64,000 nucleotides of DNA from Lophium mytilinum (Eukaryota), in contig MU004184.1 in assembly GCA_010093605.1 (NCBI GenBank), positions 1,374,801-1,438,800 on the forward strand, given 5' to 3'. The translations under genes were made by a program, and so were the position numbers. Shown piece after piece: positions 13,003 to 50,961 of the stretch (positions are counted from its first letter, which is position 1; every line of letters starts with the position of its first letter). The notes below the pieces were generated by a model. The model had not been told where the DNA came from, ran no database searches, and saw only the letters and a list, made by a program, of their open reading frames with translations.

Positions 13003-13304
13003 GAGGATGGCATGTGGAAAGTTCAGAAGAGAAAGTTGTAGATCCGGACCATGACTGCTCGAGTCGAGACAGGATACGCTCTAGCCGCGTCCGCATCAAT
13101 TTAACCACCGAAGAAATGAAGAGCGAAATAGATTGGCTGGATGTAAGTAACGATGGTTAGGAAAAGAAGAAAACGAAGTGATGTATAGCTTCAAGAAGGA
13201 AGAGCTGGAATATCAAGACAAACGCGCGGGAGCAGGAGTACGAGAAAGTGAGAAAGAGAAGGAAATCAAGATACCATTTTGCTTGAAGCATAGCGGGACC
13301 CGAC

Positions 13305-24476: not shown

Positions 24477-27400
24477 ATGTCTGGTCTTGCAATTGACCAA
24501 GCGGCCGCCGCGCAGGCTATCATTGACGACGAGCACGATACCCAGCACGATGAGCATCACATCCACCGGCACTCGGTTCACCACCGGCTGCGGGCAAGCA
24601 GCTCTATCATGCAATTGAAGAAGATTTTAGGCACGCCTCTCTTCTCCTGCACCTCGTCCAGCTCTATGGCTAACATTTTGAAGTTGCCAACCGCGGCGAG
24701 ATCCCAATTCGCATCTTCCGTACCGCCCACGAGCTGTCCCTCCACACCGTGGCCGTCTACAGTCATGAGGACCGCCTCAGCATGCACAGGCAAAAGGCCG
24801 ACGAAGCCTACGAGATTGGACACCGGGGACAGTACACGCCTGTTGGAGCTTACCTTGCCGGCGACGAGATTATCAAAATTGCCCTTGCCCATGAAGTAAG
24901 AATATATTCAACACGGGGACGACGATGTCAAGCTGACCCGAAATAGGTCAATATGATACATCCAGGCTATGGATTTTTATCTGAGAACGCTGAATTTGCG
25001 CGCAACGTGGAGAAGGCAGGTCTCATTGTAAGTCTCACAGCAGCATCTCCTTGTATCGCGTCGGCAGCTCGCAGTGTTTTTGTTGAGGGCGGGGCGGAGT
25101 CCGAGGGGCATACGGCCGCCGGCCCAATTGACGCAGCTCGGCCTGTCTCAGCGGGACCCTTGGCGAGATCGACCGCGTGGGACACAGCATGCCCATTGTT
25201 ACTTTTGCTACGCGTGGACACCTGCTCACCGAATCTAGTTTGTGGGACCGTCCCCCGACACCATTGATGCCCTTGGCGACAAGGTCTCCGCGCGCAGGCT
25301 CGCCGTCAAGTGCGACGTCCCGGTTGTCCCCGGCACCCCCGGGCCGGTCGAGAAATTCGAGGAGGTCAAGGAGTTCACTGACCAGTATGGCTTCCCGATC
25401 ATCATCAAGGCTGCCTTTGGCGGCGGCGGGCGAGGCATGCGTGTGGTCCGAGAGCAGGGAGAACTGAAAGAGGCGTTTGAGCGCGCGACGTCAGAGGCCA
25501 AATCGGCATTCGGCAATGGCACCGTCTTCGTCGAGCGCTTCTTGGACAAGCCGAAGCATATCGAGGTCCAGCTGCTGGGCGACAACCTCGGCAACGTCGT
25601 GCATCTGTACGAACGTGACTGCAGTGTGCAACGCCGGCACCAGAAGGTCGTCGAGCTTGCTCCCGCCAAGGATCTACCCCAGGAGACCCGTGAGGCTATC
25701 CTCAACGACGCCGTCAGGCTCGCCAAATCGGTCAACTACCGCAACGCAGGCACCGCTGAGTTCCTCGTCGACCAGCAGAACCGCTACTACTTCATCGAGA
25801 TCAATCCAAGAATGTAAGTCTCACCGCTCCTCTATAGCCATGCCAAGCTGCTATGCTCCGGAGGTATCACTGCCAAGGTATTGTGTTGCTGATCCATAAG
25901 ACAGCCAAGTCGAACACACCATCACTGAGGAGATCACCGGCATCGACCTAGTCGCCGCCCAGATCCAGATCGCCGCTGGTGCGTCGCTCGAGCAGCTTGG
26001 TTTGACCCAGGACTCCATCTCCACCCGCGGCTTTGCCATTCAGTGCCGTATCACCACCGAGGATCCTGCCAATGGCTTCGCCCCGGACACGGGAAAGATC
26101 GAAGTCTACCGTTCTGCTGGCGGCAACGGTGTTAGGTACGTCTCATCTCGCGCAGTTCATACAGTCCTAGGCCACAAGTCTGGGCACGGGCTCGCTCCAA
26201 CTTGCCCACCCAACACCACTGTTGGGGGTAGCCTGGTTGCTGAGTAGGCAATTAGTCAAGAAGCAGCCTAATCTGCACTGCTTGAAGCTTGACATCGCCC
26301 CTGCGTCTTCGAAACCCTGTGGGGGTACCCCAAGCAGTGGCGGACCAGTGTGCCCAGACGTGTGGCCTGTCACTATAGCTGGCGCAACCCACTAATCTCA
26401 CATCTCGTAGACTGGACGGAGGCAACGGCTTTGCTGGTGCCATTATTACCCCCCATTACGACTCCATGTTAGTCAAGTGCAGTTGCCATGGCTCCACATA
26501 TGAGATTGTACGACGAAAGATGCTTCGCGCCCTCGTTGAGTTCCGTATCCGTGGCGTCAAGACCAACATTCCCTTCCTGATCAAGCTTCTCACCAACCCC
26601 ACTTTCATCGAAGGAACTTGCTGGACCACCTTCATCGACGATACGTAAGTTGCCAAGCTGGCTTGTACTCACACCAGAATTACCACTGACTTCTACTAGC
26701 CCTGCGCTTTTCGACTTGGTTGGCAGCCAGAACCGTGCTCAGAAACTCCTTGCTTACCTTGGTGACCTTGCCGTCAATGGCAGTCAGATCAAAGGCCAGA
26801 TTGGTGAGCCCAAGTTCAAGGGCGAAATCATCATGCCAGTTCCCCACGATTCCAATGGCAACAAAGTCGACACTTCACGGCCTTGCCAGAAGGGATGGAG
26901 GAATATCATCGTCAAGGAAGGTCCTGAAGCCTTCGCCAAGGCGGTTCGAGCAAATAAGGGGTGCCTGGTCATGGATACAACATGGCGCGACGCTCACCAG
27001 TCGCTCTTGGCCACCCGTGTCAGGACTGTTGACATGTTAAACATTGCCACAGAGACCAGCCACGCCTACAGCAATGCTTGGGCACTTGAGTGCTGGGGTG
27101 GAGCTACTTTCGACGTAGCCATGCGATTCTTATATGAGGATCCGTGGGACAGACTGAGGAAGATGAGGAAGCTTGTACCCAACATCCCCTTCCAGATGCT
27201 TCTCAGAGGTGCCAATGGTGTTGCGTATTCATCGTAAGTGTCACGTGCTTTCGCGATTCTCACGTGCTAACAATTATAGGCTTCCCGACAATGCCATCTT
27301 CCACTTCTGTGAGCAGGCAAAGAAACAGTACGTAAGCCCCCAATATAGATAACCGGTTTCCCAGCAATATTTCTGTTTGAAAACTACTCAGAGAGTATTC

Positions 27401-29317
27401 CAAGGCAACCACTGTCCACTGTACGCCACTGCTTGGGGTACCCCCATAGGTTTCGAAGACTTGAGGGCGATGTCAAAGTTCAAGCAGTGCATATTAGACT
27501 GCCTCTTGACTGATTGCCTGCTCAGCAGTCAGGCTTACCCTAACAGTGGTGTTAAGTGGGTAAATTGGACAGTGGTGTCTTGGAATTCCCTAAAGGAGTG
27601 TTTTACGCAGCATAACTTGTCCTTAATATCGGTTTCCTTACTCTGGTTTTGAAAAATTTGCTGACTTTATTGCCACCTTAAGCGGAGTCGATATATTCAG
27701 GGTATTCGACGCCCTCAACGATGTTGACCAGCTGGAAGTCGGTGTCAAGGCCGTCCTTAAGGCTGGTGGTGTGGCTGAAGGCACCGTCTGTTATTCGTAA
27801 GACCCTGATTACCCTTACATCCTGAACAGCCTACTGACTGGTTTGTAGCGGTGATATGCTGAACCCCAAAAAGAAGTACAATCTTGAGTACTACATGAAC
27901 GTGGTCGACAAGATTGTAGGCATGGGTGCACACGTTTTGGGCATCAAGGACATGGCCGGTGTCCTAAAGCCCAGGGCTGCTACCTTGCTTATTGGAGCTA
28001 TCCGAAAGAAGTATCCGGATCTTCCAATCCACGTCCACACCCATGACTCTGCCGGTACTGGTGTCGCCTCCATGGTTGCCTGCGCTTATGCTGGCGCTGA
28101 TGCTGTGGACACAGCGATTGATTCGATGAGTGGTATGACTTCCCAGCCCAGCGTTGGCGCCCTCCTGGCTTCCCTCGAGGGTACTGATCATGACCCTGGT
28201 CTCGATGGACACATGGTCAGGCATCTGGACAGCTACTGGGCACAGCTCCGCCTGCTGTACTCTCCCTTCGAAGCCGGTCTTACTGGCCCCGATCCCGAAG
28301 TCTACGAGCATGAAATCCCTGGTGGACAGCTTACCAACCTCATCTTCCAGGCCTCGCAACAAGGTCTTGGCGAGCAATGGGCCCAAACTAAGAAGGCTTA
28401 CGAGCAAGCCAATGACCTCCTCGGCGATATTGTCAAGGTCACTCCCACCTCCAAGGTTGTCGGCGACCTGGCCCAGTTCATGGTCTCGAACAATCTCTCC
28501 TATGACGACGTGCTCGCAAAGGCCGAGCAACTCGACTTCCCCTCCTCCGTCCTCGAGTTCTTCGAGGGCCTTATGGGCCAGCCCTACGGCGGATTCCCCG
28601 AGCCCCTCCGCTCGCAGGCCCTCCGTGACCGCCGCAAGATGGATAAGCGCCCCGGCGCTTACCTCGAGGCTGTCGATCTCGTGAAGGTTAAGGCTGACCT
28701 TAAGTCCAAGTGGGGCGATGCCACCGAGTGCGACGTCGCGTCGTACGTCATGTACCCCAAGGTCTTTGAGGACTACAAGAAGTTCACGACGAAGTACGGC
28801 GACCTCTCTGTTCTGCCGACACGCTACTTCCTCGCCCGTCCTGAGGTTGGAGAGGAGTTCCACGTCGAGCTGGAGAAGGGCAAGGTGCTTATCCTCAAGC
28901 TTCTTGCCATCGGCCCATTGAGCGAGCAGACTGGGCTGAGGGAGGTGTTCTACGAGATGAACGGCGAGGGCCGAACCGTCACAGTCGAGGACCAGCACGC
29001 GGCGGTTGAGAACGTCAGCAGGCCGAAGGCCGATCCGACGGATAGCAGCCAAGTCGGCTCGCCAATGGCTGGTGTGGTCGTTGAGGTGCGCGTACATGAC
29101 GGCTCGGACGTCATGAAAGGAGATCCGATTGCTGTGCTCAGTGCTATGAAGATGGTAAGTTCTCTCACAATCATTCCAGCTAGCTTGACAAAATGCTTAC
29201 ATCAATTCACAGGAAATGGTCATCTCGGCACCGCACTCCGGCAAGGTCAGCAACCTAGGCGTGCGCGAGGGCGACTCAGTCGGCGCGCAGGACTTGGTGT
29301 GCAAGCTTGTCAAGTAA
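24477..29317 (+). CDS. PYC1: Pyruvate carboxylase
   Basis: [29 protein letters not shown] and the biotin site AMKM. Ten introns: 24631-24683 (GC-AG), 24896-24946, 25028-25238, 25814-25904, 26136-26410, 26645-26699, 27234-27279, 27328-27682, 27797-27848 and 29155-29212. Confidence 0.99.
26136..26410 (+). mobile_element. Introner-like intron, family B (PYC intron 5, 275 nt)
   Basis: Inverted repeat AGGCCACAAGTCTGGGCAC (26169-26187) / GTGCCCAGACGTGTGGCCT (26350-26368), 18 of 19 matching. Homologous to the MFS intron at 50256-50578 and to the insert in PYC intron 8. Confidence 0.8.
27328..27682 (+). mobile_element. Introner-like intron, family A, carrying a nested 161-nt insert (PYC intron 8, 355 nt)
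   Basis: Ends GTACGTAAGC...TGCCACCTTAAG align end to end with the MFS intron at 49494-49293. The insert at 27412-27572 is homologous to the family B core. Confidence 0.9.
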
Positions 29318-30453
29318 ATGGATGGCTAATTTTTAGCACGGTGAAAACTTCAACAGCGCTGCGCTCGGTTGTTGGATTGAGGTTTATGTTGGTACGATAT
29401 TGATGCGCTAGGGTGTGATGATTGGTAGTCGGTTGAATTGACCGCCGCGGGTCTGGTTATGTAGCTAGTTCTATAACGATATGAAGATCCTTATTCATAC
29501 AGTACTTGACTCTTGGCAGGGCTCGTTGGACTGAAGGTGGTAGTCTATGCTGACACCGTCTGAGGTGGCCCGAAGAGCTATCTGGCTTGTCCGAATCACC
29601 TTTTTCCCATTCACGATGCAATACCAGGGGACCTCAAGCGGTGCCAGACATGTGTACATACGTAACACCAAAGCAGGTTTAGATCTATTCTATCGCAGAT
29701 CTTAGAAAATAATCACCCATTGGCGCATTGCCACTGCTTGTTCGACAAACCCTGCGAGGGTTGCTGTTGGTATGTTGAGGCGGCCTGGCTCCTGCTTTAC
29801 GCACTTTGACGCAGCTGTAATCACTTCTTTTTCTATAGTCTAATCTGATGTGAGATGGATGATCCCATGATGGTATACTGATTCACAAGCTTCGTGAACC
29901 CAAATTCTTAGATGGCAGTATAAATGTGCACGGAGTGGCTCCCGTACGTTCAGATTAACGATGATGCTTTACCTGTTAATTTATATACTGATTGAGGATG
30001 TCTGTCCCACAACCCGGCCTCCGCAATCCGATTTAGCCTCCTTATAGAAAGCACTACGTTTGGGCTTGATTCTCGCTCTCTTCTAATACCATGCTGAAAG
30101 GATGTCCTAATCGCACAGACTGGCTCACGTTGATTCATCTTTGCGGCGTCCGTGTTGTTTCAGAGCTGTGATCTCAGGAGAAACGCCTATCGATACAGGT
30201 CCACTGTCGAACGATATCAAGTCAAGGCCTGATTTCCACTCTCTTTCAATGTAATGCTTACATCGCGTTGAAAAAGCGCGGAATGGCCTCCATACACCCA
30301 AACGCGCTAGAACATAATTCATATCAGATCTAACTGCTAAACTATCTCGCAACAAGCCGTGTCTTAACTACAACCAATGCAGCTCCTCTAATCCTACAAC
30401 CAAGTCACACCGCAACCACGATAAAACCACGGTTCCAATTCCATCACTAGCAA

Positions 30454-30665
30454 ATATGTGCACACCGTTTTAGTCCGCAAGCCCACTGAACCCAGGAACG
30501 CAAGCAGGTCTGAAATAACAGGCGCCGTCCGCCCCCGAACAACCCCACAGAGCAGGGAGACTTCCCCTTGCGGGGTTCCTCACTTCCGCTAAGGGGGGGC
30601 AGGGTAACGAGCGTTGATCTTGCGCGTGTGCGAAATCGCACAGAGGTAAAGCGTCGGCCAACATG
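30454..30665 (-). ncRNA. Candidate structured box H/ACA-type RNA (snR30/U17-like layout)
   Basis: 5' hairpin TGTGCG/CGCACA, H-box-like AGATCA (30620-30615), a long G:U-rich hairpin capped by CCCC-GCAA-GGGG, a 3' segment with TTCCTG...TAAAAC, and ACA at 30459-30457. The 5' end is uncertain. Confidence 0.45.
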
Positions 30666-31006
30666 GGGAGGAGTTGGAGACGCTTTGGTGTGTGTAGACC
30701 CGCGCTGGGTTGGGAGCATAGAGGGAGATAGGGAAGATGAGGGACGGGAGCACTAACAGGGTGGAGGAATGGGGGGATCTGTTATAGGTAAAGGGTGACT
30801 TGGTAGTTGAGAAGGCGGGGTAGTTTTAAAGGATGTTGAAAGTGTCATGTGTAGATAGAAGATTCGTATTGAGCGCTTGCGATGCTGGAAACCCTAGATG
30901 ACGCCTGCTATGCTGGTGAGTAGAGTACAAGTTATATACAACATCTAAATGCGTGTGCATCTTTTATACATGCCAACGAAAGGAAAATCGTGAACGGAAT
31001 ATAATT

Positions 31007-34000
31007 TTATTCCTCTGGCGACTGTGCAGTGATTTCTTTGATCTTGTCGGCCATGCCTAGGTCACGTATGTCCCACCCAGCTTCTTTGGTGGCCCAGTCT
31101 TTGCGTTCACCTAGGATGGCGAGGTTGCTGCGCGAAGCACCCTGTACGAGGTACTTGTCCGCTACCGCCTTGATCTGTTCGGCGGTGACGTCGAGGAGAA
31201 GCTCTCTCCGCCTTTGGAGCATGTCGTCGTCGATTCCAGAGAGGAAGAGTCGCATGCCCTCCTGGCTGACGCTCTGTGGCGCGTCATAGCCCTGGAAGAC
31301 GCTCAGCTTGGCCTCTTCCAGGTCTTGAGCTGTCCAGGTGCGATCGCGGGCCCAGGCGCCGGCTTCAGTCATGATCTTGATGGTGTTTTGGGGGTTCGGA
31401 TCACGATAGCTGTAGTAGCCAAATACGCCGCCGAGGGACCGGCTATAAGCCCCACCTCCATACGCACCGCCCTTCTCACGAATCTCGTGATGTAGATGCT
31501 TGTGAGTCAGGAGCTGAGCTAGAATCTCCAGCGGAGCTCCTGCGTCATTGGTATATGGTACAGTGGGAATGGCGAGACCAGCATAGTAGACCTGATATGG
31601 TAGGGGAAAGAACGATTTGGAGTTTCGGGGGTACTGTATTGGTTCAGAGGTTGAGGTGACGTTAGAAGATTCGGTCGGTAGCCCAGTCAAAAAGCGTTGC
31701 AAGGCCTCCTGGTTTGACGTTGAGCTCTCATTCCCGCAGTTGAGAGCTACCCGAAATGTCTTGCTATTGGAGATGGCAATGGACTGTATGGCCTTCAACT
31801 TCTGTATAACGTCATCCAGTGACTCTGAAACGGGACGCGATGCTAGACCAGTGGTGAGTTTGATCTGTGACAGGCCACCCGTCTGCTCGTTCAGGCGTCC
31901 AATCGGAGTCAATCCAGCCTCTGCAAACGTGCGAGCAAAAGAGTGACCGGTTTCTGCAATGGAATTGACAGCTCCACTTGCAGAACTCTGGAGTAGTTCC
32001 CGGATCTGCTTTTCTGCCTCAGATCCGTCGAAATCTGTCTCGAAGATGACTGTCCGAAGTAGGTCATACATTGCGGGCACGTTTCGATCTAATGCATAGC
32101 CAGTGAAAGAAAGACCTTCCTGGTACGACTCCACAGAATCCGGAGAAGGCGAGGAATGATAGCCAACGGATATCCCGCCAGTCTTGAGCTTAATCAACTC
32201 TTCGAGCTGTTCCATAGTCTTGTCTTTGGTGCCAAGTCGCATTATCGCGCTGCTGAATAAAGGGATCATTTCTCGTAGCTCATCCGGGAGATTATCGAGT
32301 TGCTGGATAGCCCGGAAATAGGTCAGGCCGTTGGTGTGAGCTTCCCGCCACTGGACCTTCACATCGCCTAGGGAGCTGTGTCGAACTTCTTTCCTTTCTT
32401 TTTGACGAGGTATGTCTTTGACATGCACACTTGGGAGGCAGCTGAGATCTGCATTTCTTGCAGTCTCTTGGACCTCTAAGAGTTCGAGCTCTCGCTTCTC
32501 TAGGTATTGTTCGGCCTCTTCTTTGCTTGAGAATTTCTCTGTGGCCTCGGAAATTTTATCCACAAGTCGCTGGCTCTCTTCGGCAACTAATTCTTCGCTG
32601 TATGTTTCCGATGGCTCCATGGTGAAGGTGAGCGTGTTGTCGTTTAGTAGATACTTATCGAGTAGACTCTCAAGATAGCCTCCCTTGGCATAACTGTTTT
32701 GGAAAGCGGAGACAGTTTCTTGCCAGGCTAAAGCATCCATCGGGTCGACACCGTTGAACCAGCCAGGTTGTAGTCTCTGCATGACACCCATACCAAAATG
32801 GGCCGTCTTATGCTTCAAGGAAAGCTCAAGCTGATGTAGGATACCGTCAACTTTGATTTTATCGAACCCGTTTGTCCTGGCTTCCGCAAATGTTTTGGCG
32901 ATCGCTTCTTTGACTTTAGGAACGTCTTCCGCCTTGACACCATTTAACCCAACGGAGAAAACGCCAACTTTTCCAGCACTATCATACCCAGTGTTTGGGC
33001 TGAAATCTGCACCAAGCCCTGATTCAATAAGGTTGCGATAGAATGGCGAACCGTAACCGTCGAGCAAAAGGTTACTCAATAGTCCTAGAGAGAAGTTTTC
33101 AAGAACATCCGTAGTGTCTCCCATGAGCCATGTGGTGGAGGTCTTGTATTGCATATCTGGCGGCATGAGGAGATCTGTCGGTCCCTTGACCGTGACAAAC
33201 TTCGGACCATCATCCAGACTTATTGGCGCTTTAATGTCGCTGTCCACTTGTATTTGGCTGAATTGACCTAATCTAGCATCGATTTCTTTGAGATGGTCGG
33301 CCAGTGGGAGGTCGCCATATGTGAAGACCTTTGCATTGCTCGGATGGTAGTGGTCTGCGTGGAACTTCCGCAATTGCTCCCATGTGAGATCGGTAATCTT
33401 TTGTGGGTCGCCGCCCGAATTGTTGATATCTGGAAAGAGGTGGTCCTGGAATCTGATATAGAACAGATAGCTCGCATCCGACATTTGGCCCTTCATTTCG
33501 TTGTAGACAACGCCTTTGAAGACCAGTTTCTTTTCCTCTCCCCCTCCTCCTGATGCGACTGCTAAAGGGTTCTCGGGGCCTATTCGCCATCCCTCCTGCG
33601 TGAAGTCGTTTGAGTTGAGTAACGGATGAAGAGTCGCATCGAGATATACCGACATCAAGTTCCTGAAGTCTTGCGCATTTGTGGTGGCGAAAGGATAGGA
33701 AGTATGATCGGCGGAAGTGAAGGCGTTCATGAAATTCGACAGTGACCGAGGAAGCATCTTGAAGAAGGGATCGCGAACGGGGTATCTAGAGTTCGTTTAG
33801 CGTGTATTCACAGGGTTATGAAGAGTGCACCAACTTCTCGCTGCCACAGAGGGTAGTATGTTCCAAGATGTGCGGAACCCCAGTATCATCCGGTGGATTC
33901 GTCTTGAAGCCGATGGAGAAGACATTGTTGGAGTCGTCGCGGGCGATGTGGAGGTAGTCGGCACCGGTTTTGTCGTGCTGAAGCTGGAAAGCCGTGAGCT

Positions 34001-34184
34001 CCAGCTCAGGGACCTGTTTGACGCGCTTGAGAGTGAAGCCATGAAGTTGTTCTCCGATTTTTGGCTGGCCGGAGACATCGCTCACTGCGGCAAATCCTCG
34101 ACGGAATGGACGGCCCGTCGAGAGTCTCGAGGACGGCGCAGCAATGCGCGACGCCCATAGAGATGATCGAGAGCACCGAAGCAT
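31007..34184 (-). CDS. CYM1: Mitochondrial presequence protease (M16C pitrilysin family)
   Basis: [11 protein letters not shown] inverted zinc motif, GVVYNEMKG and IREKGGAYG, with an Arg/Ser-rich presequence. Intron at 33834-33786. Confidence 0.97.
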
Positions 34185-35104
34185 GGCAAACTCGTAGATG
34201 TGAAGTATTGACAGCGTGAAGAAAAGAATCGCGGGAGCATGACGCGATGTAGTGGGACTCGAAATCGTAGAGTGACGAGGGGCCGGAAGTTACGGGTGCA
34301 TAAGATGCTGAACCTGCATAGCGCTTCCCGAGCAGCCTCGAACGCCCGCCATAGCCCTTCTAGTTTAAGAAGTACTATTGCTTTAACGGCTGTTATATTG
34401 TAGAGATGTATATAGCGGAATAAGTGTCTTGCTTAGTATATAGCTGTAAGCTTATATCTTTGTAAACTTATAGGTTCTATACTGGCTAGTTAGAAATATG
34501 TAATATTACGTAATTATTACTTTATGGGGGCCTCTTAAACGGTGTATCGAATTGACTTCAGCCTGGAATCAAGACGACTGGACGAGGAATCGCTATTTGG
34601 ATGGGATATAAGGACTCTAGTCAATCTGCTACTGCTCTGAGAAGCGTGTCGCCTTGTTGCTCTTGCGGGTGGCCTGGTTGTCAAGTGAAGCATCTCATCA
34701 CCCCTTGGTTCAGACTGAAGTCTCTTGCCGAGCGCCCTCTCCACTCCGATCGTGCACTGTTGGTCTTGTCGCAAGTCTTTCCTCACCTGCATGCGACCCC
34801 CAATAGAGCAACGATTCTTCTCTCCCGCTTCTCCTCTCGTGTTGAAGCTTCCATTCTTACCGCACGACGAGCTTCAGTGCGCCATCGAGGACTCAGCTTC
34901 ACCCTTCAACCCGACGACTCCGAGAAGCCCGAACAACATCACGACGCCACCCTCCCGCCAAAGCTTCTAATCCGCCCGGCCTGTTGCTTGGTCCTATGTG
35001 AACATCGACACGCTGCCACTGAAGGCTGTTGGGTGTTGAATCTGGGCGGATTGCAGACGTCATTTGGGTCTGCAAATTGAAGTCCTAGATTCGGGTCTAA
35101 GCAT

Positions 35105-36943: not shown

Positions 36944-37520
36944 GATGTGGTATGCGAGTGCGGTCCGCTAGCTTTAGTGAAGCCGTTTGCAAGCATTGGC
37001 TTTCGGGGGTTCTGCCCGCCTTTAGTTTTAAACCGACCTGATATCTACTCCCCATTTGTGTTTGACTTGTTAGATCGCTTGCCCAACCATGCTTCAAATT
37101 TCAGGTGATTTGACTGCTCACGGACGGAGGAATTTCAGTATATCCATACAGTGTCGGCCTTGCAGCTAGTTCCTGTATAGTTGTACAGCGAGAAGACGAT
37201 GACGATACGGTCTAGCCCTCCCAACACTCTCGTCTGGCAATTTTCGGCACGAGTAAGCGGTTTGGTGTTGAGTCGATGAACGCTACTTGCCCCAGCTTAG
37301 TTCTACCTCGGCGCCCCGCAAACTGACCACTCTTCGCATTACTGCTAACACGCGACCCCCAACTTCATATTTACCCTTGAATTGCCATGCCTCGGTGTCT
37401 GCCGGTCTTTTATATGTGCTTCTACAATTCAAACATACCCCCATCAATTGCAACAGAGCCTCCATAGTTTCACAAGCCTTCATCCACCAACCACATCTCC
37501 CCCCATCCTAATCCTCCACC

Positions 37521-38567: not shown

Positions 38568-39161
38568 GGGGCTGGCGGGGTGTGTGAGTAAAATGTATAA
38601 CCAAATAAGCAAATATTACTTCCTTGGAGGTCCGATCTGCTTCCTGAGGTCCACTTGTAATCAAAGGACCTGGGCAGTGCAGTCTTCAGAGCTGTCGTGC
38701 CCGTGAATTACGTACATCTAGGTGCTCAGAATTGTGAGTCTTGAATCACGAACGGATGTCCTCAGCGTTGAAGCCGATCCTAGTCGGGCAAGCATATAGG
38801 TATTTGAGTTGTCGATACGTCCGTAGCATATTCCGCAACTGTATAGTAAACACGCTGTGCCAAAAGTCTTATTTATTTATGGATTTCCGTTAGGCGGAAG
38901 CCCGGGCTGAGAACTAATGGGGCCGGTGGAAGACGACACGGCCAATCAGCAACGCAAAATCGGGATGCCGTGCAAATGGGGCGATGCCCAAGAACCTCCG
39001 CGAAACACCATCCAAAGATCTCGACCACTGCCATTCTTCCCCTCTTCGCGCCCTCTCCAGCTTTCTATTCTTCCTCCGCCCCCGCCCTCCCATCTCGAGT
39101 CTGTTCCGCCGACGGCCGCCAACACACATGATCCTCCGCGCAGCCTCGTCCACCTCGACCC

Positions 39162-41727
39162 ATGCAGGCCTCGCTGAAGAACCATCAAGAAGCCCAGCGA
39201 AAAAAGCTTGCCAATTCCTACAAGCAACTTCTCGAGTAATAGCTTGCCCTCCCCCTTGCGTCCGCTTATCGCTAACCCAGCCGTAGTGAGTTCTCGTCGA
39301 AGGACCTCACCAGCGTCGGGAACTACACCCTGGGGCGCCTCATAGGCAAGGGATCGTTTGGCAAAGTCTATCTGGCATCTCACAAGCTCACCAATGGCTC
39401 AAAGGTGCGCTAGATTCTAGGCAACAACAATGACGGAGTTGTGAGCTAACATGCGCGCAGGTCGTGCTCAAGTCGGCGAACAAGGACGATGCGAACCTGG
39501 CGAGAGAAATACACCACCACCGGCAATTCCTCCATCCACACATTGCTAGGCTATACGAAGTCATTGTGACCGAGTCTTTAGTATGGCTGGTGCTGGAGTA
39601 CTGCCCAGGTACGTTGCAGCGCCCAACCCTTTCTTTCCTTTTAGTGAGAACAAATTCTGACGCGGTACCAAATTTTAGGAGACGAGCTGTACAACTACCT
39701 TCTCGCCAAGGGCGCAATTGAGCCGGCAAAAGTCCAGCGAATATTCACGCAACTCGTCGGCGCCGTAACATACGTCCACAACAAGTCATGCGTCCACCGA
39801 GATCTGAAGCTGGAAAATATCCTCCTGGACAAGCACGAAAATGTCAAGCTGGTAGATTTCGGTTTCACAAGGGAATACGAGGGCAAGTCGAGTTACCTCC
39901 AAACGTGGTGCGGGACCGTGTGCTACAGCGCGCCAGAGATGCTGAAGGGGGAGAAGTACGCTGGTGAAAAAGTGGATGTTTGGAGCTTAGGGATTATCTT
40001 ATATGCGCTGCTCGCTGGAGAATTGCCATTTGACGACGATGACGAAAATATCACGAAGATGAGGATTCTGAAGGAGGAACCAAACTACCCGGAGCACTTC
40101 CCTCCGCAGGCAAAGGAACTGATCGGACAATTACTTTCCAAACGACCCATTTTACGGCCTTCCTTGGCTGACATTCTGCAACACCCCTGGCTTGCAGACT
40201 ACGCCCCTCAACAACAAGCAATCTTGAAATTACAACAACCGGCTCAGTTCACCACCGACCTAGAGAAGGAAACGCTGCAACGAATGCGAAGCGCCGGTGT
40301 TGATATTGATATGGTTATTGAGAATGTCCTTGCCCAGCGATGCGATGCCCTAGCTGGATGGTGGGCACTATTGATAGAAAAGGAAGAAAGAAAAGCCAAA
40401 AGAAGAGAGCGTAAGCGCAAGGAACGCGAGGCAGAGGCAAAGAGTTTAAGACGGCTGAGCGCAGCTAGTAGTCGACTTGAAAGGCTTGCTCCTACTATCA
40501 GAGAGACTGATGAAGAAGGCCAGCATACTCCCTTGATCGGTGATCCCCCAAAAAGTCGCGGTCGCAACATGAAAAGGAAGAGCGTCACCAGTGAGTAAAT
40601 CTAGACAGGCATCATCTATTGCTAGGGCTAATATGTTCATAGGCGGCATATCAGATCTGCCACGCCTGCTCGAGACACAATTGACTCCAGACTCAGAACA
40701 GCCACCTCCTCCAATCGAGAAAGATGCCCGATCGTCAGACTCCTCAAGAAATCGACCCCCTTTGCCTCCAAAAGAGGTGAGAAGATCGAGGAGTAGCATG
40801 CTTCAGGTGGTGTCCAATAATCCTGACCTACTCAACCCGAATGGTTTCGTTCCAAAGCGCCGACGGAAATACCAACAACCGTTCATCAACCAACTAGCTG
40901 CATTCCGAAACTGGCTCAAAGAGACATCCAAACGAGCAAAGTCGCCAGGTTCAAAATCAAGCAGCACCATGTCTCCAAAATTATCGCAAGGCAAGAAATC
41001 TCCAGATACCCGACGTCTCTCAAGCGCTGGCGCCCTCTCCAACCGACCTTCTGGCAACAATAGTCGCCCTGACCTCCAAACCCGCGCCTCCTTTCCCCAA
41101 CGCCCTCGAATCTCCACAAATGGCAGCACCGTCTCTACAAAACGGCCCTCACTATCACCCTCCCCCTTGACGCCACGTTCTTCCTACCGCCGCAGCTCAG
41201 TTGGCCTCCGTGGCCGCAAATCCACCTCGTCATCTGTATCGTCTGTCCGGTCTATCCACCACCATCACTCCCACTCCAAAGCCTCATCCACCTCATCTGC
41301 CTCCCTCGCCTCGCCGTCTGTCTCTACGACCTCCAAACCCACCAAATCCCCCCACACCTCGGTCAAAGTCCTCCCCGCCACACCAACCACCTCCTCCTTC
41401 CCCTCCAACGTCCGCATTGTACGCGCGCCAGTCAGCGAAGGCGGCGCCGCATTTGGCGGCGGCGGTCTTGCTAGCCCGGGTCTCGTCTTCGCGAAGAGGA
41501 AACGCTCGCCCTTCAAGGGGCCGATGCTGCATGTGAGTCAGCACGGCAGCCCGAGCACGTCACGGCAGCGGAGCGAGAACAACTCGAGGAGCGCGAGCGT
41601 ACAGGGGCGACGAAGTGGGGAGATCATCGAGGAGGAAGACGAGGATGAAGTAGAGGAGGTGGAGGAGTTTTCGAATATCATGCGAGCAGGGGAGTTCATA
41701 GAGGAGACATCGATCGCGGAGAAATGA
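39162..41727 (+). CDS. CAMK/AMPK-related Ser/Thr protein kinase (Ppk16-like)
   Basis: GKGSFGKV, HRDLKLEN, DFG, APE and DVWSLG across four introns, followed by a long Ser/Arg-rich tail. Confidence 0.93.
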
Positions 41728-44700
41728 ACCGCGACGTCACGGAGACTCAGCGAAGAGGCTTAGGGGATGCCTCTAGATTCACGTATTCACTTCATGTTGG
41801 GATTTTAGGATGATTGGGCTGCTAGGAGCTTTTCTTCTTCTTTTCTTTTGTAAGCTGGTTCTGACGCCTACCGCTTTGAGGCGGGGTTGTGTTGAGTTCA
41901 GCGGGGGCGTCTTGCGGTGCTTCTTCTTCTTCTACTGCTTTCTTCTTTCTTTCACGTCTACTTCTTTTACCGATACTTTTCTTCTTCGATTCTCAGTCTT
42001 CCTCCCTCCCTTTCTTTTCGCTTCATGTGGTGGGATTTCCTCTAATGCATAATGTAAGGGAGAAAGAGGATGCCGCTCCCAACATTTCCAAATCCTCGTT
42101 TCCTATGTCGTTTGGGTAGCGGTTGCAAAAGTTGCATTGGGGCCAAAGAAAGCTGGGTACTGGGGCTGGGTACAGATGAGATGGTGGGGGATGTTGTGTC
42201 AGAGTCTATGTGTCGATGTTGAATATCGGTTGGATGGGAGATGGAGGGCGGTGCGTAGATACCACGTCAATGAGATCGGGCTTTTTGGGTTTGAATTGTG
42301 TTATTGTTGATGCTCATGGTGGTTGGGCTGTTTTTGGAAAATGCAGTGGGCGGGTTGTGAGACGTTGCAGTAGTGCGGAGGCAAGTGGAAGCGTGCTTCT
42401 GCAAGGACGCGCTCTTGGGTTCATGGATTGCATGGATTGAATGTGAGCATGAGAATCACGGGTGGAGAATTGCCGTATGCAAGGACGCGACTCTTTAGGA
42501 AGGATTGGAGTTGTGGACTTCGAAATGATAGAGTAAAGGCACGTGAGCGACTAGAAGGAGGTACAGCATATCCAACAAGCTCGCACCACATAACCGCTCC
42601 CCATCTTGTGGGCACCATGGGTCGCAAACGTTACCACCATGCTCCTGCCACGCTTTCACGTGGATACAACCGGCTCCGCATCACATGGCCGGCTACCACA
42701 CCTCTTATCACCAATGTTGCAAATTTCCAGCACCGCTATTGCTAGCCCCGCGTCATGCCGTTCTAGAAGACAGGTCTAGAGAGCCCTAGCTGGAGCTAAG
42801 TCAGGTACGAAAGTCGGCCCATTCGGACATTACTGCCAACAGCAATCACATGCGCGAAGCTCGTCGGTAGGTCGCCTAAAGGTAATTTATGGATGTATGT
42901 ACCTGCGAACTCCTGTCACAGCGCCGTTTGGACCTCCTGCATGGCAGGCTTTGACAGCCAGCCACGCGGTGGTGGTCCTGCCTGTTTTGTGCTACGGCAC
43001 GTCAAGAAGCGGGTGGGCCCGTGGGGTGGGTGATGCTCGTGATTGCGGGATGGTAGCAATGAATGGTCTGAGCGGGTGCGGTTCGGTGCTCCTGCGACGT
43101 GTAAGAAGAGTGAAAGAGATGGAACATGCTGATGCTTGGGAGGCGAGTCAAAGAAGCAAACACGTAGATGGGCGAAGGATCGATGGCTAAAAGAGAGGCA
43201 ATGGTACGACCATCACTGTTCCAATGCATAAAGCAGGCGCGGGAGACGGGATGGAGGGGTCACACGCGGTGTTCGTGGTGAATCAGCCCTGTTTGGGCAA
43301 TGTTCTCGACTCTCGAGACGGTTCCTGCAGCTGCTCTTGTTGATCTGATTCCTAACCCAAGTCCGTTGCCACGCGCGTCGGGGCCACTCCTCGACAGGAA
43401 CCGAGCGATTGACCGGCAGGAATCAAGATTAAAAATTGAGGTGCTCCGTGGTCTACTACTGCACCTTCTCGTCGCCAAAGCCACACAGACGGGGCTCGTG
43501 ACGCTTTTGTAAGGAGACTGTGGGAAGACTGAGGCCTGAAGGCAAACCAGGGTAAAGCTTAACCAGATGTCGTGTGCCACCAAGCCCCAAACGGTTGGCA
43601 GCAGCCGGTGGCATCGGGCACGGCCGCCAATCCGATTCTTATCGGTGGCGCAAGAGGGCCTGCTCGGATGCAGTATGGCGCGTCAAGGATGACAGCCGAC
43701 GACGGCACCGGTAGCCGTTGATATCGTTCGAGTGTCGACACGATATCTGTCCGATGGTACGTACAGTAGTCGGTCGCACACGCCTGCACGCTGACGGCCG
43801 TTATTGCAAGACGGCACAACGGTTGCTGCGAGACTCTCATCTGCGCCGTCATGCTGTGATGCCGTCTCCCAAGGCTTTGGCTCAGGGCTTTTGCGGGGCC
43901 GAGGATTCGTTCAATCTCGCGCTTCTGCTAGAGTCCCCACAGCCGTTAGAGCGCCGGGCTGGCGGTCGTGACACTTCGACCTGCCCGAAGCAGACCTGGG
44001 GCAGTTCGTCCACCCCCGAGTGCCTCGCGTCTGTTTTGCCAATCGGACCTGGCCACCGGCTGACGACTCTTCACCCGTGGACGTCTCGGAGTGGCGTTAA
44101 TTTTGGACTGGCTGCCTCGGCGACCACTGAGCACCCAGGAGCCGCTTTCGAATGCTGTCGTGCTGAACATCAGTGTGACGAGCGTCAGGATTCGATACTC
44201 GGGTCTGCACCTATGAGCGGCGTCGTGCTGGGTCTCGCAGGACGTCTCTCATGACAGGTACAGACTCGAAAAAGACGCAGAGGATTCAATGAGGATTCAA
44301 TGGCGGCGATAAGAAGGCGGGTTGCAGATGATGGTGGCCTTCTACGTCTCTTCTAGAACCGGTGGCGGCGTGCGCTTGCCTCGTTCTGCTCTCGCCATCA
44401 ACGCCCTCCGCCAGCCGGGCGTCTTCGCGCGTCGGACAAGGTGTTGGAATTGCGCTTCTGTCGCGTCTGTGGTTGGTCGCAGAGACACTGGTGGTTGGGA
44501 GATCGCTGCAGCCCCCCGGAGCGTGGGATGGTGGCAGCATCAGTATCGAGGGGCGGGACTCGACACCGGCCGCCCGTGTATCAAATGGTTGCTCCCTGCT
44601 AGTCCGGCATCCCGGCGAGCCCTTTGCTGCTGCTGGTATCGCGCGCAGGGCCCCGAGTGGAGTGCCTTGTCGAGCCAGACGAGCACCCTTCAGCTGCCCT

Positions 44701-44883
44701 TTTAATAAGTCTGACTGCGCCTCGGCGCGACTGCTCAACCCCATATCACCACCGCGGTACCCAGACGCCCATCCTGGCCCAACAACCTCACCTCGTCGCT
44801 GCCACCACGGCGGCCGTCTGCCTGATCGCTGCGGCCCGCTGAACACCACCACTGTCTGTCTGTCTGTCTTCGTCACCACCGCC

Positions 44884-46783
44884 ATGCCCGCCGGTAGCAT
44901 GGACACGGAAAAGGGCCTGCGCAAGAACTCAGAAGGCCGATACTCACCCGACTCCATGTCGCCCGACTACTATGGCGAGTCCTCAGTGCACCGTGACGCC
45001 CTCGGGCGGCGCATCTTCGACAGCTTCAAGCGCAGCCCCAACTATTCCATGACGCCGAAAGGCACTCTGGGCGCTGACGGCAAGGTCTTCGATCTGGAGA
45101 GCGCGGCACGGAACACGGCGACGTCGCCCCTCTCGCGGACGCTGAAGGGGCGGCATCTGCAGATGATCGCAATCGGCGGATCCATTGGTATGGTGTTGCT
45201 GTTCTGCTTTTCTGGTACCGACGAGTGCTAATTTTGCTGTTCAGGGACCGGCCTCTTTGTCGGGTCCGGGAGTGCTCTGTCCCACGGTGGACCGGCCTCC
45301 GTCGTTATCGCCTTCTGTCTGATTGGCGTCATGTTGTACTGCACCGTCCACGCACTGGGCGAGATGGCAGTGCTGTTTCCCGTCGCCGGTTCATTCTCGG
45401 CCTATTCCACCCGTTTCTTGGATCCGGCCTGGGGCTTCGCCATGGGATGGAAGTAGGTCCTCCCCCGTCAATGTCAATGCGTGTCGAAACAAGACTGACC
45501 GTGACAGCTATGCCCTGCAATGGCTGGTCGTGCTACCCTTGGAGATTGTTGCTGCAACCCTCACGATTGAATTCTGGAACCACGGGAAAGTCAACAACGA
45601 CGCCTGGGTCGCCGTATTCCTCGTATTGATCGTTGGCATCAACCTGTTCGGTGTCAAAGGCTACGGCGAGGCCGAGTTCGTCTTTGCTATTGTCAAAGTC
45701 ACTGCTGTTATCGGCTTCATCGTCCTCGGCGTAGTTATCAACGTCGGAGGCGGCCCAGATGGCGCCTACATCGGAGGCAAGCTGTGGCGCGACCCAGGAG
45801 CCTTCAACAACGGCTTCAAGGGGCTCTGCAGCACCTTCGTGACCGCTGCCTTCGCCTTTGGGGGCACTGAGTTAGTAGGACTCGCTGCCGCCGAGACCGC
45901 TAACCCGCGCAAGTCGCTCCCCACGGCCGTCAAGCAGGTCTTCTGGAGAATCACTCTCTTCTATGTCGTCTCCCTCATCCTGGTCGGTCTACTCGTCCCC
46001 TACACCGACAAACGTCTTCTCAATAGCTCCACCCCCGGCAACTCTGTCGCCTCTCCCTTCGTCATTGCGATCCAAAATGCCGGCATTGAAGGCCTCCCAT
46101 CCGTCTTCAACGCCGTCATCATGGTCGCCGTCCTCTCCGTCGGCAACTCCTCCATCTACGGCTCCTCTCGCACTCTCGCAGCGCTAGCAGAGCAAAATCA
46201 AGCACCCAAAATCCTCGCATACATCGATCGCCAGGGCCGCCCTATAGTCGCCATCATCGTGGCGTCCATCATCGGCTTCCTCGCCTTCCTCGCCGGCTCC
46301 AGCAAGCAAGAAGACGCCTTCAACTGGATGATGGCCATATCGGGCCTCTCATCCGTCTTTACCTGGATGAGCATCTGCGTCTCCCACATCCGCTTCCGCA
46401 AGGGCTGGGCGGTGCAGGGTCATTCGCTCGACGAGCTAGCCTTCAAGTCGGCCGCTGGTGTCATCGGATCGTACATCGGCGCCATCTTCAACGCCCTCGT
46501 CCTCATCGCCCAGTTCTGGACCGCCTTCTCCCCGCTCGGCTACGAGACGATGTCGACGAAGGAACTCGTCAATACCTTCTTCCAAGCCTACCTCGCCTTC
46601 CCCGTCGTCTTGATCATGTACATCGGGTATAAGCTGTGGTACCGGACCCCCTTCATCCGGTCGCACAATATGGACCTCCACACGGGCATCCGCGAGCTGA
46701 ATCTCGCGGAGCTGATCGCGGAAGAGCGGCTAGATCGGGCGAATTGGCCGCGGTGGAAGAGGGTGTATAAATTCTTCTGCTAA
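44884..46783 (+). CDS. Amino acid permease (YAT family, Gap1-like)
   Basis: RHLQMIAIGGSIGTGLF, FAFGGTELVG and 12-TM hydrophobicity. Two introns near 45188-45244 and 45453-45507. Confidence 0.96.
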
Positions 46784-47234
46784 TTCGGGTATCGATCTGC
46801 GTCTTTTGCTGTTTATATCTCGATTTGGTTTCATAAACTATGGTGTGGCCGATCTAATGCGATCTTGGTGGCTGTGATATCTATCTTCCTCGGCGATTTA
46901 GCGCATGGGCGGGCTGCTGCTGTTGTTGTATTTTTAGACTACGAGATATCCCCAGATGACTTTGATGCCGGTAATGATAGCCTTGGTTCAAACCTCTTAA
47001 GTGTCTGTTTGGGGCTATTGTTGTTTGTTGTAACTGTGTTTTGTCTGCAAGTTGCTCGAGTCGTTTGAGGTCACTCGTCAAACGGGACGAGTATGCCCCC
47101 TATCCGTTACAGCTATGTCCAGCCCGCTCGACCTCAACAACGCTAGGAGCCACTCTGCTGCGTGAAGTATCCACTGTGAGAGCTGACTAGCGGAAATAAG
47201 GGACTTAAAGGGGGTCTCGAGGGGGGTACTTGCT

Positions 47235-48255
47235 GTACCGCATTAGGTGAAACCATTGCAAGTTCTTACGGATTGAACCGTGTAATGCCCAAATTTGTAA
47301 AGGCGGCGTCAATGCAGCAACGTGGAGGGGATCGGTCACGTATCCAGTGCAAAGGGGGAAACATTCACATATTGAACTGTCTGAGGAGCTTTATACCAGA
47401 CGCGATTTAGAGGTACCGTCCTCATTATCTCGAACCTTTTGAACCACGCGTCGGTTGAAAATGGTAGAAAGAATCACAGATCAAACTGTCTGATGCGCTT
47501 TTGTATAGACGTGGCGTGTACACCGAACCCCTTTTGGTGTGATTTTTACTTGGCCTACCGTAGTCACACATTGGGCGCGAGTAGTGGAAGAGTCACAGAG
47601 TTAACCACGTAACTACTTTTGTTTGTTTGATACAGCGTTTGTTAAGTGTCACCTTGATGTAGTGATTCCCCTTACGCTCTCTGGTCACGCGTTGGAGTTA
47701 TATGGTGGGAATAGTTACAGGTCTAACCGCCTGATGATAGCTTATTCAGACGCGGCGTGCACGCGAGAGGCACATGGTGGACACTTTACGTAGTTGTTGA
47801 TAGTGGTATAATCAATCATCTATGCAATACCGTCGATTGAGGCTAGTTGAATGGTTGCGATCATGTGGAGGGTGGAGGTAAGTCGAGGGCACGCCCTGGG
47901 TCAATATGTTAGAAGGAGTCACAGATTCAACCGCGTAGATGAGATCTTAGAGTACGGGCGTACGCGCCGCTTAGTGGTTATTCCAGGCTGCTCAAGCAAC
48001 GCGATGGTGCTATGAGGGAGGAGAAGTTACAGAATGAACCGAGTGATTGTATTTTTCGAGAGACACGGCGGAGATGCGGTAAAGTTGGTGAACGCCGTTT
48101 GATCGGCAAAAAATTACATCAAAGGAGACTAGAGTTGGAGAGAGAATGGAGTGGAGGTAAAGTAGAGTGGACTGAGGCCACGCGTTGAGTCGAAGAGTTG
48201 CAAAGTTTTACACATTTGTTGGTGGAATCAGTTTTAGTAGAGGCGGCATGGCCGT
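47235..48255 (+). repeat. Array 2 of the ~80-bp fixed-spacing repeat family (8 clear copies, 1 eroded)
   Basis: TYAC cores at 47266, 47365, 47474, 47593, 47715, (47816), 47919, 48027 and 48208. A CACGC-like motif lies 28-29 bp upstream and a GACGCGGCGTG-like motif 32-36 bp downstream. Spacers are unrelated to each other. Confidence 0.9.
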
Positions 48256-48628
48256 GGCATGGACGCGCAGTGACCATGAATGGGAGATGACTGGCTCTGT
48301 ATTAAGTAGAGAGCTAAGGACAGACAGTGCCTATATTAATGTACAATTATGTTCGGAGCCATATCTACAGAACAAGGGTAGTCTAATGGTATCGTTGTGA
48401 AAGTCTATAGTCACCGAAAGAAGAAGTAAAGAAGACGTAGGAGACGTGCTTATGCAGTAGAGGTGAGAATCACCTGAGGAGGTTGGTCGCACAGAGGGAT
48501 TCGCAGACCCTAGGGGCTCCCATGGACGCCCGAAAATGCTAATTAAAGGAAATGGACAAGGCTGTCAAGTGGTGCCGGTGTGTGAGTTCTGATGCCAGCT
48601 TTTCAAAGTGATTCAACCCCAAGTCATC

Positions 48629-50961
48629 TCAAAGCTTCAATTGGAACCTCGGATTTGTCCGAATTCGCTCACCGTATATCTTAAAGATAACGGGGACGGG
48701 GATCAAGGCAAGGGCAACGAAGCCTAGAAGGGAATTACCCCAGCCAAGACCGAGCTTGTTGTACATTGATAGACCTGCTAGAGGAAGTAGAGCACCGAAG
48801 ATGGAACGGATGACCGTATTGGCGGCCATCGCGGAAGCAGCGTGCAGAGTAAAGGCATCAACGAGGTAAGTTTGGATGGTCAGCTGTGAGAAATCCGTTA
48901 GCTAAGCCCACTGCTATAATTGAAGAGTGTTCACTCGGAAGGACACATACAAAGTTGCTCAGCATTCCTATTCCGACAAACGATGTACCAATGAGTGGGA
49001 CAATCCAGTGGACGTGTTTATCTGTTCCCCAGCCGTACATAAAGAGCCCGACGGGCAAGCAAATGCCGCCAGGAACAGTCAATATCATTGGCAGCCGATC
49101 TTCCGGCTTCAGAGCCTTGCCCTTCGCCTTCTGTCTCTTGAGGACTCGATCGCTAGCAACACCTAGAATGGCGAGGCCGAGAATCATACCTATGCCAGTG
49201 GCAATGTAGGTAAGTCCGACTGTTCCAGACGAGAAATGATAGTTTTCTTCAAAGACAAAGGTGATGGTCGTGAACAGGAGGTAGAGTATGCCCTTAAGGT
49301 GGCAGTAAAGTTAGCAAATATTTCAGAACCAGAATGAGGAAAACGATATCGACTTCTTGAAACAACTGTCGCGTGAGACACTTCTTCGGGGGATTCCAAG
49401 ACACCAATATGGTTGTCTCAGAATACTCCCTGAGTAAGTTTTCAAACGAACAAATTGCTGGGAAAGTTTTCATCTTTATCGTGAGCTTACGTACGTACGC
49501 AACGGCCGAGTAAAAGGACATGCAAAAGACGATAGGTGATGTCAGGAGCATCTTCGTGGGCCGCACAATGCTGAGACGGAACAGCTCCTTCGGCGAGATG
49601 GGTGACGTGAGCTTGGATCGGAGATTCGGGTTTCCGGTCTCTTTTCGAAGCCTTGCGGCTTTTCGTTCCAGGATTACGGGTGCGTACGTCTCCCGCAAGA
49701 AGACGAAAGCTAGAATAGTGACAACACCGCCCTGTGCGCCAGTGTTAGTATAAGGGGAAATGAAAAAGTAATCGGAAATAGGCTCAGATAAAACATACCA
49801 ATATCGCGATTAGGTAGAATACCCATCGCCATCCTTTTGCTTGTACTAGAAAACCCCCAATTACTGGCCCCACTACAGGTCCTATGAGTGGGCCCATAGC
49901 CCATATAGCCATGGCGCCGCCTCGTTTTTCCACGGGCATCAAGTCTGCGATCGTTCCGCCTCCAATCGTAAGAGGGGCAGATCCGACTGAGCCTTGAAGG
50001 AATCGGAATCCGACAAGCATGTTGAAGTTGCTCGACACTCCACAGGCAATAGTGAAGATGATGAAGAGTATGTTGCAGGCATGGTAGATCCACCTTCGGC
50101 CGTAGAGTTCACTCAGAGGTGCGACAATTAAAGGTCCGAACGCGAAGCCGAGCAGGAAGACGGATACGACGAAGGCTGCAAGAAGGTCTGATTTCTCGTG
50201 AAAGCCAGCCATGACTTCAGGGACGCCAGGGGCGAACATAGAGGATGCGAGAGGGCTGATGAGGTCAGCTGTAGCTCTGACTGGGAATAATAGTACTGGG
50301 CCGTAAGTCTGAGCACACGGTTTTATCACCGCTCAGGTAGCACTCCTAACAGATGAACGCCACTTCGTCGCTTTCGGTTGCAAGCTAGAACGAGATGACA
50401 CTGTCAAGAGGCTACCCGTTGCCAAAGAGCCGGTCTGTCAAGATGCAGCCCGGATTCCATTTCTTGAGAGTTGAGATCGCGTCTAGATTTTATGGAACCC
50501 ACAGGAGTGCCTCGAGCAGCGGCAGGCAAGTGTACAAAGACTCGTGGCTTGTTATGAACGAGGATGGAATGTACTCACGTCACGAAGGTGATAGATGAGA
50601 GAATGGCGATATTTCCCCACTTCAAACCATTCGAAAAGTTCATAGGGTTCTCTGGATCATTTGGGCCGTCCCAAAATATCACATTCGGGTCTGATTCCTC
50701 GGCACCCTCCTCTGGCAGCTTCTCTGTTGTATCCCCCGCATCGTCTATCTCCCCGCTAGACGTGGTGGGATGGCTGATTGCACCTTTTTCGAGGTCGCCC
50801 TTTTCGTGGTCGTGAATTGACGAGCGCTGTCCTGGGGTGTAGACACCTAGATTGGAAGGTACGTCCGCATCGTGGCCTTCTTCGTAGGCAAGCTCGAGCC
50901 TTGGGTTATCAAGGTCATGAATGTGATACGCCGGATTTGAGTAGGAGCCAGGAGTCGCCAT
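48629..50961 (-). CDS. MFS drug:H+ antiporter (DHA1 family)
   Basis: [28 protein letters not shown] and ETYAPVIL motifs. Four introns, including 50578-50256 and 49494-49293. Confidence 0.96.
49293..49494 (-). mobile_element. Introner-like intron, family A, empty form (202 nt)
   Basis: GTACGTAAGCTC...CTTTACTGCCACCTTAAG with a central hairpin GAGACAACCA-TAT-TGGTGTCTT. Homologous to PYC intron 8. Confidence 0.9.
50256..50578 (-). mobile_element. Introner-like intron, family B (323 nt)
   Basis: Nested stems GCCACGAGTCT..GTACAC / GTGTGC..AGACTTACGGC and GCACTCCT / AGGAGTGC. Plus-strand 50399-50555 is collinear with plus-strand PYC intron 5. Confidence 0.75.

Follow-up and report, generated by a model that had tools for sequence, protein, structure and literature searches.

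Two unrelated genes of Lophium mytilinum carry copies of one long intron that probably belongs to a small introner-like family

The stretch of DNA analysed here, called the window throughout, comprises 64,000 nucleotides (nt) of the fungus Lophium mytilinum (assembly GCA_010093605.1, contig MU004184.1, positions 1,374,801 to 1,438,800 of the forward strand), and positions are counted from its first letter. It contains a gene for pyruvate carboxylase (PYC) and a gene for an MFS transporter of the DHA1 type, and one intron of the first resembles one intron of the second from end to end. An earlier interpretation made from the letters of the window (the sequence-only reading) had taken the two introns for members of an introner-like family, and we refer to the repeated unit as family A. 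The features concerned are listed below.

24477 to 29317, + strand: PYC gene with 10 introns; the splice model equals protein P0215 (KAF2499503.1) exactly
26136 to 26410, + strand: PYC intron 5, 275 nt, containing a full foldback repeat at 26160 to 26374
27328 to 27682, + strand: PYC intron 8, the composite family A copy, 355 nt, phase 2, after amino acid 689 (K-K before H; K689/H690)
27328 to 27409, + strand: 5' part of family A, with donor GTACGTAAGC and 5' hairpin arm, 69/78 identical to 49494-49412
27410 to 27572, + strand: insert at the hairpin apex of PYC intron 8, 163 bp; a piece of a high-copy foldback repeat, labelled 'family B' earlier, forms its core (27417-27569)
27573 to 27682, + strand: 3' part of family A, with 3' arm, branch point and acceptor TTAAG, 38/44 and 50/58 identical to the MFS copy
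48629 to 50961, - strand: MFS (DHA1-type) transporter gene with 4 introns; the splice model equals protein P0216 (KAF2499511.1) exactly
49293 to 49494, - strand: MFS intron 3, the short family A copy, 202 nt, phase 0, after amino acid 359 (between AVAY and GILY; Y359/G360)

The splice models were assembled from GT..AG and GC..AG introns with the annotated L. mytilinum proteins P0215 and P0216 as target, and both proteins match the window exons at 100%. The exact models agree with the coordinates that the sequence-only reading had given for the two introns, with their phases (2 and 0) and with the name 'PYC intron 8'. The PYC introns measure 53, 51, 211, 91, 275, 55, 46, 355, 52 and 58 nt in order and those of the transporter gene 323, 67, 202 and 67 nt, so that the family A introns, at 202 and 355 nt, compare with a median of 62.5 nt among the remaining 12. 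Pyruvate carboxylase of Mytilinidion resinicola shares 99% identity with the large PYC exon, a few residues being different, and precomputed Pfam assignments (PF07690, PF00083 and PF06609) are found on homologues of the transporter, including the 94.6%-identical P0121.

In a gap-tolerant global alignment that runs from donor GT to acceptor AG, as the sequence-only reading had aligned them, 162 of 185 aligned bases of the PYC and MFS introns are identical (87.6%). The 75-80% identity estimated by eye is lower than this global value; local blastn gives 78.8% over 85 columns and 75.4% over 114 columns. Transitions account for 18 of the 23 differences and transversions for 5 (Jukes-Cantor distance 0.136), and the differences are spread over the 5' arm (69/78 identical), the 3' arm (38/44) and the 3' tail with the branch point (50/58). 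Both introns start with GTACGTAAGC and finish with TGCCACCTTAAG, every shared motif pointed out earlier is present in both, and the likeness reaches the splice sites, taking in the first 23 nt and the final 58. Outside these, the exon flanks match at chance level (6/30 and 10/30 bases, with 30 bases taken on each side of the introns). When the 64-kb window is compared with itself, three repeated segments emerge in all, namely the two family A arms (E = 3.9e-12 and 7.6e-15) and the core of the insert, and no other look-alike intron pair is found in the window. These E-values exclude chance as the source of the likeness. The PYC copy is 153 nt longer than the MFS copy owing to the 163-bp insert at 27410-27572.

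Direct reading of the exon and intron ends reveals no target-site duplication at either copy, in line with the sequence-only reading: the exons end in ...GAAACA (PYC) and ...GCGTAC (MFS) and resume with CGGAGT and GGCATA, and none of these repeats the intron ends. GTAC abuts GTAC at the MFS donor, without a counterpart at the PYC donor. Both copies lie in sense orientation to their genes.

Splicing of the PYC copy shows in an RNA-like run. Among the sequencing runs that cover 25900-27900, X1 and X2 are DNA-like and come from one sample, and X3 is presumed to be RNA, its contigs being spliced; contigs of X1, X3, X4 and X8 were compared with the window at 80% likeness. One X3 contig joins 27327 to 27683 at a depth of 1420 and skips 355 nt bounded by GT..AG. 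A second joint, 26132/26408, skips 275 nt and corresponds, with the cut moved by +3, to 26136-26410 (PYC intron 5); further joints lie at 26644/26700, 27233/27280 and 27796/27849. None of the five PYC joints occurs in DNA run X1, so all five PYC introns within 25900-27900, including intron 8, are removed exactly as modelled.

The family A unit carries its own splicing signals: the donor is GTACGTAAG, the acceptor TTAAG, and TGCTRAC, 18 nt ahead of the latter, serves as branch point. The branch point reads TGCTGAC in the PYC copy (A at 27664) and TGCTAAC in the MFS copy (A at 49311), and a canonical GTACGT donor, TGCTRAC and AG are all present in both. In the predicted fold of the short MFS copy, 12 unpaired nt with the donor are followed by an imperfect hairpin of about 140 nt, with ATTCTGAGACAACCA / TGGTGTCTTGGAAT at its tip, and by a 50-nt tail. 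About 12 nt at the start of the unit and about 50 nt at its 3' end lie outside the paired arms and are conserved too; in this fold the unit does not terminate in inverted repeats. The composite PYC copy folds with z = -4.41 (0/100 shuffles as stable), largely owing to the nested repeat. Comparison of the 59 predicted hairpin pairs between the two copies shows 33 unchanged, 8 with a one-sided change, 2 compensated, 9 broken and 7 gapped; such changes are weak evidence of selection on structure, since transitions alone turn Watson-Crick pairs into wobble pairs.

Whether the intron positions are old was read from relatives. From metagenome contigs we collected 79 fungal PYC loci with 75-92% identity to the PYC protein, 77 of which cover amino acids 686-700, and in none of these 77 is there an intron at 689/690. 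Seventy span the site free of gaps, 6 read through a short intron between S673 and L674 but continue unbroken over the site, and 1 begins at amino acid 685 and is continuous from that residue on; around the site, 65 of the 77 are distinct. Introns at other places in the gene, one or more per locus, occur in 67/77, which identifies these loci as genomic DNA, and the neighbouring 46-nt PYC intron at amino acids 673/674 is common to 8 loci, so the method does detect conserved introns. On this comparison the PYC copy marks a demonstrable gain of an intron in this lineage, its position being absent from every relative sampled.

For the transporter, 94 of 94 homologues align across amino acids 359/360 (AVAY/GILY) without insertion. 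Thirteen of them, from JGI, ENA or Logan only, end at amino acids 471-479, and the next intron here follows amino acid 473; they therefore behave as calls of open reading frames (ORFs) on genomic DNA, and all 13 ORFs run unbroken through 359/360. NCBI gene models are uninformative on introns and some of the 13 ORF-type entries may be paralogues, so that the homologues suggest, indirectly, that transporter intron 3 also occupies a gain position.

Further copies of family A exist beyond the window. The summed depth of X1 contigs over the family A arms is 991 (27307-27373), 1,757 (27374-27440), 2,259 (27575-27641) and 2,059 (27642-27708), that is, 5-13 times the single-copy value of 155-177, a summed contig depth not being a copy number. 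Variant letters stand at 27592, 27602, 27617 and 27622 on 11, 7, 7 and 7 X1 contigs, respectively, and at 27592 and 27602 the majority letter is that of the MFS copy. One X1 contig, 13,718 nt in length, differs from 27392-27682 at 33 positions and by one gap; its likeness ends exactly at the acceptor AG (27682), beyond which it is unlike the window, and it is a further family A locus. Several further copies therefore exist, perhaps 5-20 judging by contig depth. Contigs of X4 and X8 give no cover over the family A arms, which is no sign of absence.

Another locus came to light through translation, the MFS intron being open in frame 0 for 66 codons. A search of 1.84 billion representative proteins returned P0218, an 84-residue Logan ORF identical to the translated intron at 61/66 residues. 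The likeness begins at the first intron codon (V-R-K = GTA CGT AAG), after an unrelated flank of 18 residues that occurs nowhere in the window, and a cluster mate, P0222 (93 amino acids), has the same flank with 7 differences. P0218 thus reveals a third family A locus, present in the short form without an insert at the hairpin tip, and P0222 is a sister copy. The other three of the four representative-protein matches (P0219-P0221) were dismissed as repetitive proteins with 28-31 residues matched. The translated MFS intron had no match at E <= 1 in a word-indexed collection limited to longer proteins, a 26-base 3' motif of family A had 0 matches in a scan of metagenome contigs, and blastn with both introns against the 79 fungal PYC loci detected neither family A nor the foldback repeat outside the window.

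A further X3 contig is 414 nt long and spans 27298-27682, that is, 30 exon bases and all of PYC intron 8, with 33 differences, the same count as in the X1 contig that covers only 27392-27682. It is either a chimeric assembly path (unspliced PYC RNA joined to another copy) or a second locus that shares the 5' arm and the upstream exon bases exactly.

The insert that lengthens the PYC copy belongs to a different repeat. Its core is 84.5% identical over 155 columns to 26350-26196, on the opposite strand, within PYC intron 5. There the full foldback repeat (26160-26374) is 215 bp long and has 18-bp terminal inverted repeats (GGCCACAAGTCTGGGCAC / GTGCCCAGACGTGTGGCC); 14 and 35 X1 contigs have loose ends that mark its edges at 26160 and 26374. 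Its DNA fold has z = -4.96. Summed X1 depth is 22,598-42,827 over the repeat in intron 5, more than 100 times single copy, and 10,372-18,773 over the core in intron 8, compared with 155-177 for single copy. PYC intron 5 has the position and phase of a 50-nt intron in one of the fungal loci (L016) and is therefore an older intron that the foldback repeat later invaded. The repeat in intron 5 represents the family from which the insert in intron 8 derives; in intron 8 only the inner part is found, without the terminal repeats. Because the 13,718-nt X1 contig has the same continuity from core to arm at another locus, the composite form (arms plus foldback core) exists at least at one more locus. 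Either the composite arose once and was then copied, or the short form is a deletion derivative. Copies of the foldback repeat are also seen in contigs of run X4, which is labelled as another organism.

Several other introns of the two genes deserve a record. PYC intron 1 (24631-24683, 53 nt) has a GC donor in the exact model (GCACGC..AG). PYC intron 3 (25028-25238; 211 nt, phase 0, after amino acid 149) has a position common to many relatives, in which the intron at amino acids 147-157 measures about 190-260 nt in 11 loci and about 52-80 nt in 5 others. Transporter intron 1 (50578-50256, - strand), at 323 nt, is 5 times as long as usual, and nothing in the window resembles it; it may be a further degenerate introner, or a repeat may have inserted there. 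Rfam has no family at E <= 1 in 24400-29400 or 48600-51000, PYC intron 3 included, and hence the introns of the two genes contain no known small RNA. Within amino acids 414-434 of PYC (window positions of about 26120-26460), fungal PYC genes have at least 4 intron positions within about 25 nt, with phase 2 at N and R and phase 1 at V and G, some of the introns being 215-273 nt long (loci L004, L015, L016, L023, L028, L045, L053 and L072). This cluster is a local hot spot such as those that Collemare et al. 2015 (PMC4457414) term parallel gains.

Introner-like elements (ILEs) of Dothideomycetes were reportedly the subject of work by van der Burgt and colleagues in 2012. As characterized by Collemare et al. 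2013 (PMC3609843), ILEs are near-identical introns in unrelated genes; they are present in high copy, contain canonical signals, fold at low energy and are about twice as long as ordinary introns, occupy gain positions and are prone to shortening. Counts range from 24 to 377 per species, with 144 in the Dothideomycete Hysterium pulicare, a copy criterion is that a cluster more than doubles in a profile search, and repeats inserted in pre-existing introns are set apart from ILEs (PMC3609843). PYC intron 5 with its foldback repeat belongs to the class so set apart. Family A agrees with these elements in that its introns are near-identical in unrelated genes and have their own donor, branch point and acceptor, are several times the ordinary intron length and rich in hairpins, come in a shorter and a longer form, have a lineage-specific position and occur in the same class of fungi. 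In contrast to them, its copies are far fewer than 24-377, the fold of the short form is not significantly stable, and the hairpin tip of one copy holds a fragment of a repeat from a different family. In likeness, signals, length and gain position family A conforms to the description of ILEs, and its copy number would place it between two classes of PMC3609843, 'low-copy intron' and 'ILE'.

A family of this kind is already on record for the species. Dataset S2 of Gozashti et al. 2025 (PMC12130899) lists one introner family, fam2, for L. mytilinum GCA_010093605.1, with 4 copies, gt in 4/4 and ag in 4/4, splice sites at consensus positions 23 and 224 (202 nt apart), an automatically called 3-bp duplication at 29-31 and 222-224 and the label 'co-opt both'. 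Going by these table entries, family A shares with fam2 the species, the 202-nt spacing of the splice sites, which is that of the MFS copy, gt and ag throughout, and AAG at intron nt 7-9 and in the last 3 nt, the places of the repeated 3-mer. The label in the table, co-option of both sites with a 3-bp target-site duplication, misfits the PYC and MFS copies, because GTACGT lies outside the supposed duplication yet within the repeated unit and is absent from the mRNA. To judge from the tabulated numbers, fam2 is very probably family A. The tables also give the sister species of L. mytilinum its own introner family (fam1, 5 copies; PMC12130899), and a literature search found no paper that links the name of the sister species with 'introner'. 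The kind of element is already known and the family of this species has probably been catalogued.

Taken together, the sequence-only reading is supported: the introns are real, the likeness extends over the whole intron, further copies exist and the PYC position is not ancient. Family A is probably a small, low-copy introner-like family of L. mytilinum (Mytilinidiales, Dothideomycetes) in which the repeated unit is a complete intron, and on the best reading of the evidence it created at least the PYC intron. A copy would bring its own donor, branch point and acceptor, land in a coding exon and be spliced out harmlessly, and such self-contained signals would account for its presence in two unrelated genes at different phases. 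The exact GT..AG edges, the lack of a target-site duplication and the sense orientation in both genes suggest spread via an RNA intermediate, by reverse splicing with reverse transcription and recombination to follow; such 'spliceosomal retrohoming' is favoured for ILEs (PMC3609843).

Several points weigh against this interpretation. The PYC loci sampled exclude the nearest relatives, Mytilinidion, Glonium and Hysterium. The RNA-like run bears on splicing of the PYC copy only, that of the MFS copy being based on annotation and protein continuity, and the intron setting and sense orientation are seen for these two copies only. For an ILE there are few copies (2 in the window, 4 according to the survey table and about 5-20 by depth), and the match with fam2 is drawn from the numbers of a table in which the 4 host genes bear JGI identifiers. 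The fold of the MFS copy is not significant (z = -1.29; 19/200 shuffles as stable), and 9/52 comparable hairpin pairs are broken between the copies and 2 are compensated.

Introners of the miniature inverted-repeat transposable element (MITE) type in Micromonas and Aureococcus, the subject of work by Huff and colleagues in 2016, are said to produce target-site duplications, with one splice site built from the duplication. Like these, family A is a short non-coding mobile unit that creates spliced introns; unlike them, it shows no target-site duplication and has both splice sites inside the unit. As an alternative, family A could move as a non-autonomous DNA transposon (foldback or MITE) and create its introns at the DNA level, like the algal introners, with a transposase acting in trans and the long inverted arms as terminal repeats. 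The unit is indeed largely one hairpin, and a true foldback repeat is nested in the PYC copy as well as in neighbouring intron 5; the survey derives introners in general from transposons, and its routine called a 3-bp duplication and 'co-opt both' for fam2 (PMC12130899). However, no such duplication flanks the PYC or MFS copy, and the hairpin falls short of the edges of the unit, with 12 nt before it and 50 nt after it that are conserved too. The 'AAG...AAG' of the survey tables lies inside the intron behind GTACGT and hence cannot flank an element that brings GTACGT. We therefore regard a DNA transposon as unlikely.

Insertion of a repeat into two pre-existing ordinary introns is what happened 1.2 kb upstream, where a 215-bp repeat lies within PYC intron 5 at a position common with locus L016. 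For family A the same account is barely credible, given that the likeness reaches the splice sites (the first 23 and the last 58 nt) and that 77/77 other PYC loci have no intron at the site. The two introns could also result from a one-off or few-off transposition or conversion between genes, that is, be 'low-copy introns' in the sense of PMC3609843 that do not propagate themselves. Just 4 copies in the survey table would suit this, as would the 12.4% difference between the window copies, which gives no sign of recent activity; but at least 4 loci are seen (PYC, MFS, that of P0218 and the X1 contig unlike the window beyond 27682), 7-11 variant contigs cover the 3' arm, and a unit 3-6 times as long as usual introns matches ILEs rather than the low-copy class (PMC3609843), which leaves this alternative very improbable.

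With family A read as a small introner-like family, the less ordinary feature of the locus is only the composite copy with its captured foldback core. As a second locus carries the same junction, there is an outside chance that the composite form is itself a propagating unit and that introners and foldback transposons swap modules at their hairpin tips. If true, such a swap could lend an introner the DNA-level mobility of a transposon, or show how new introner families are assembled. ILEs have the best support as a source of new spliceosomal introns in fungi, and the overall picture is unchanged by this locus. It offers a clean pair, with a datable gain in a housekeeping gene and the short and composite forms side by side, and may be useful as an example and for picking copies to test for mobility.

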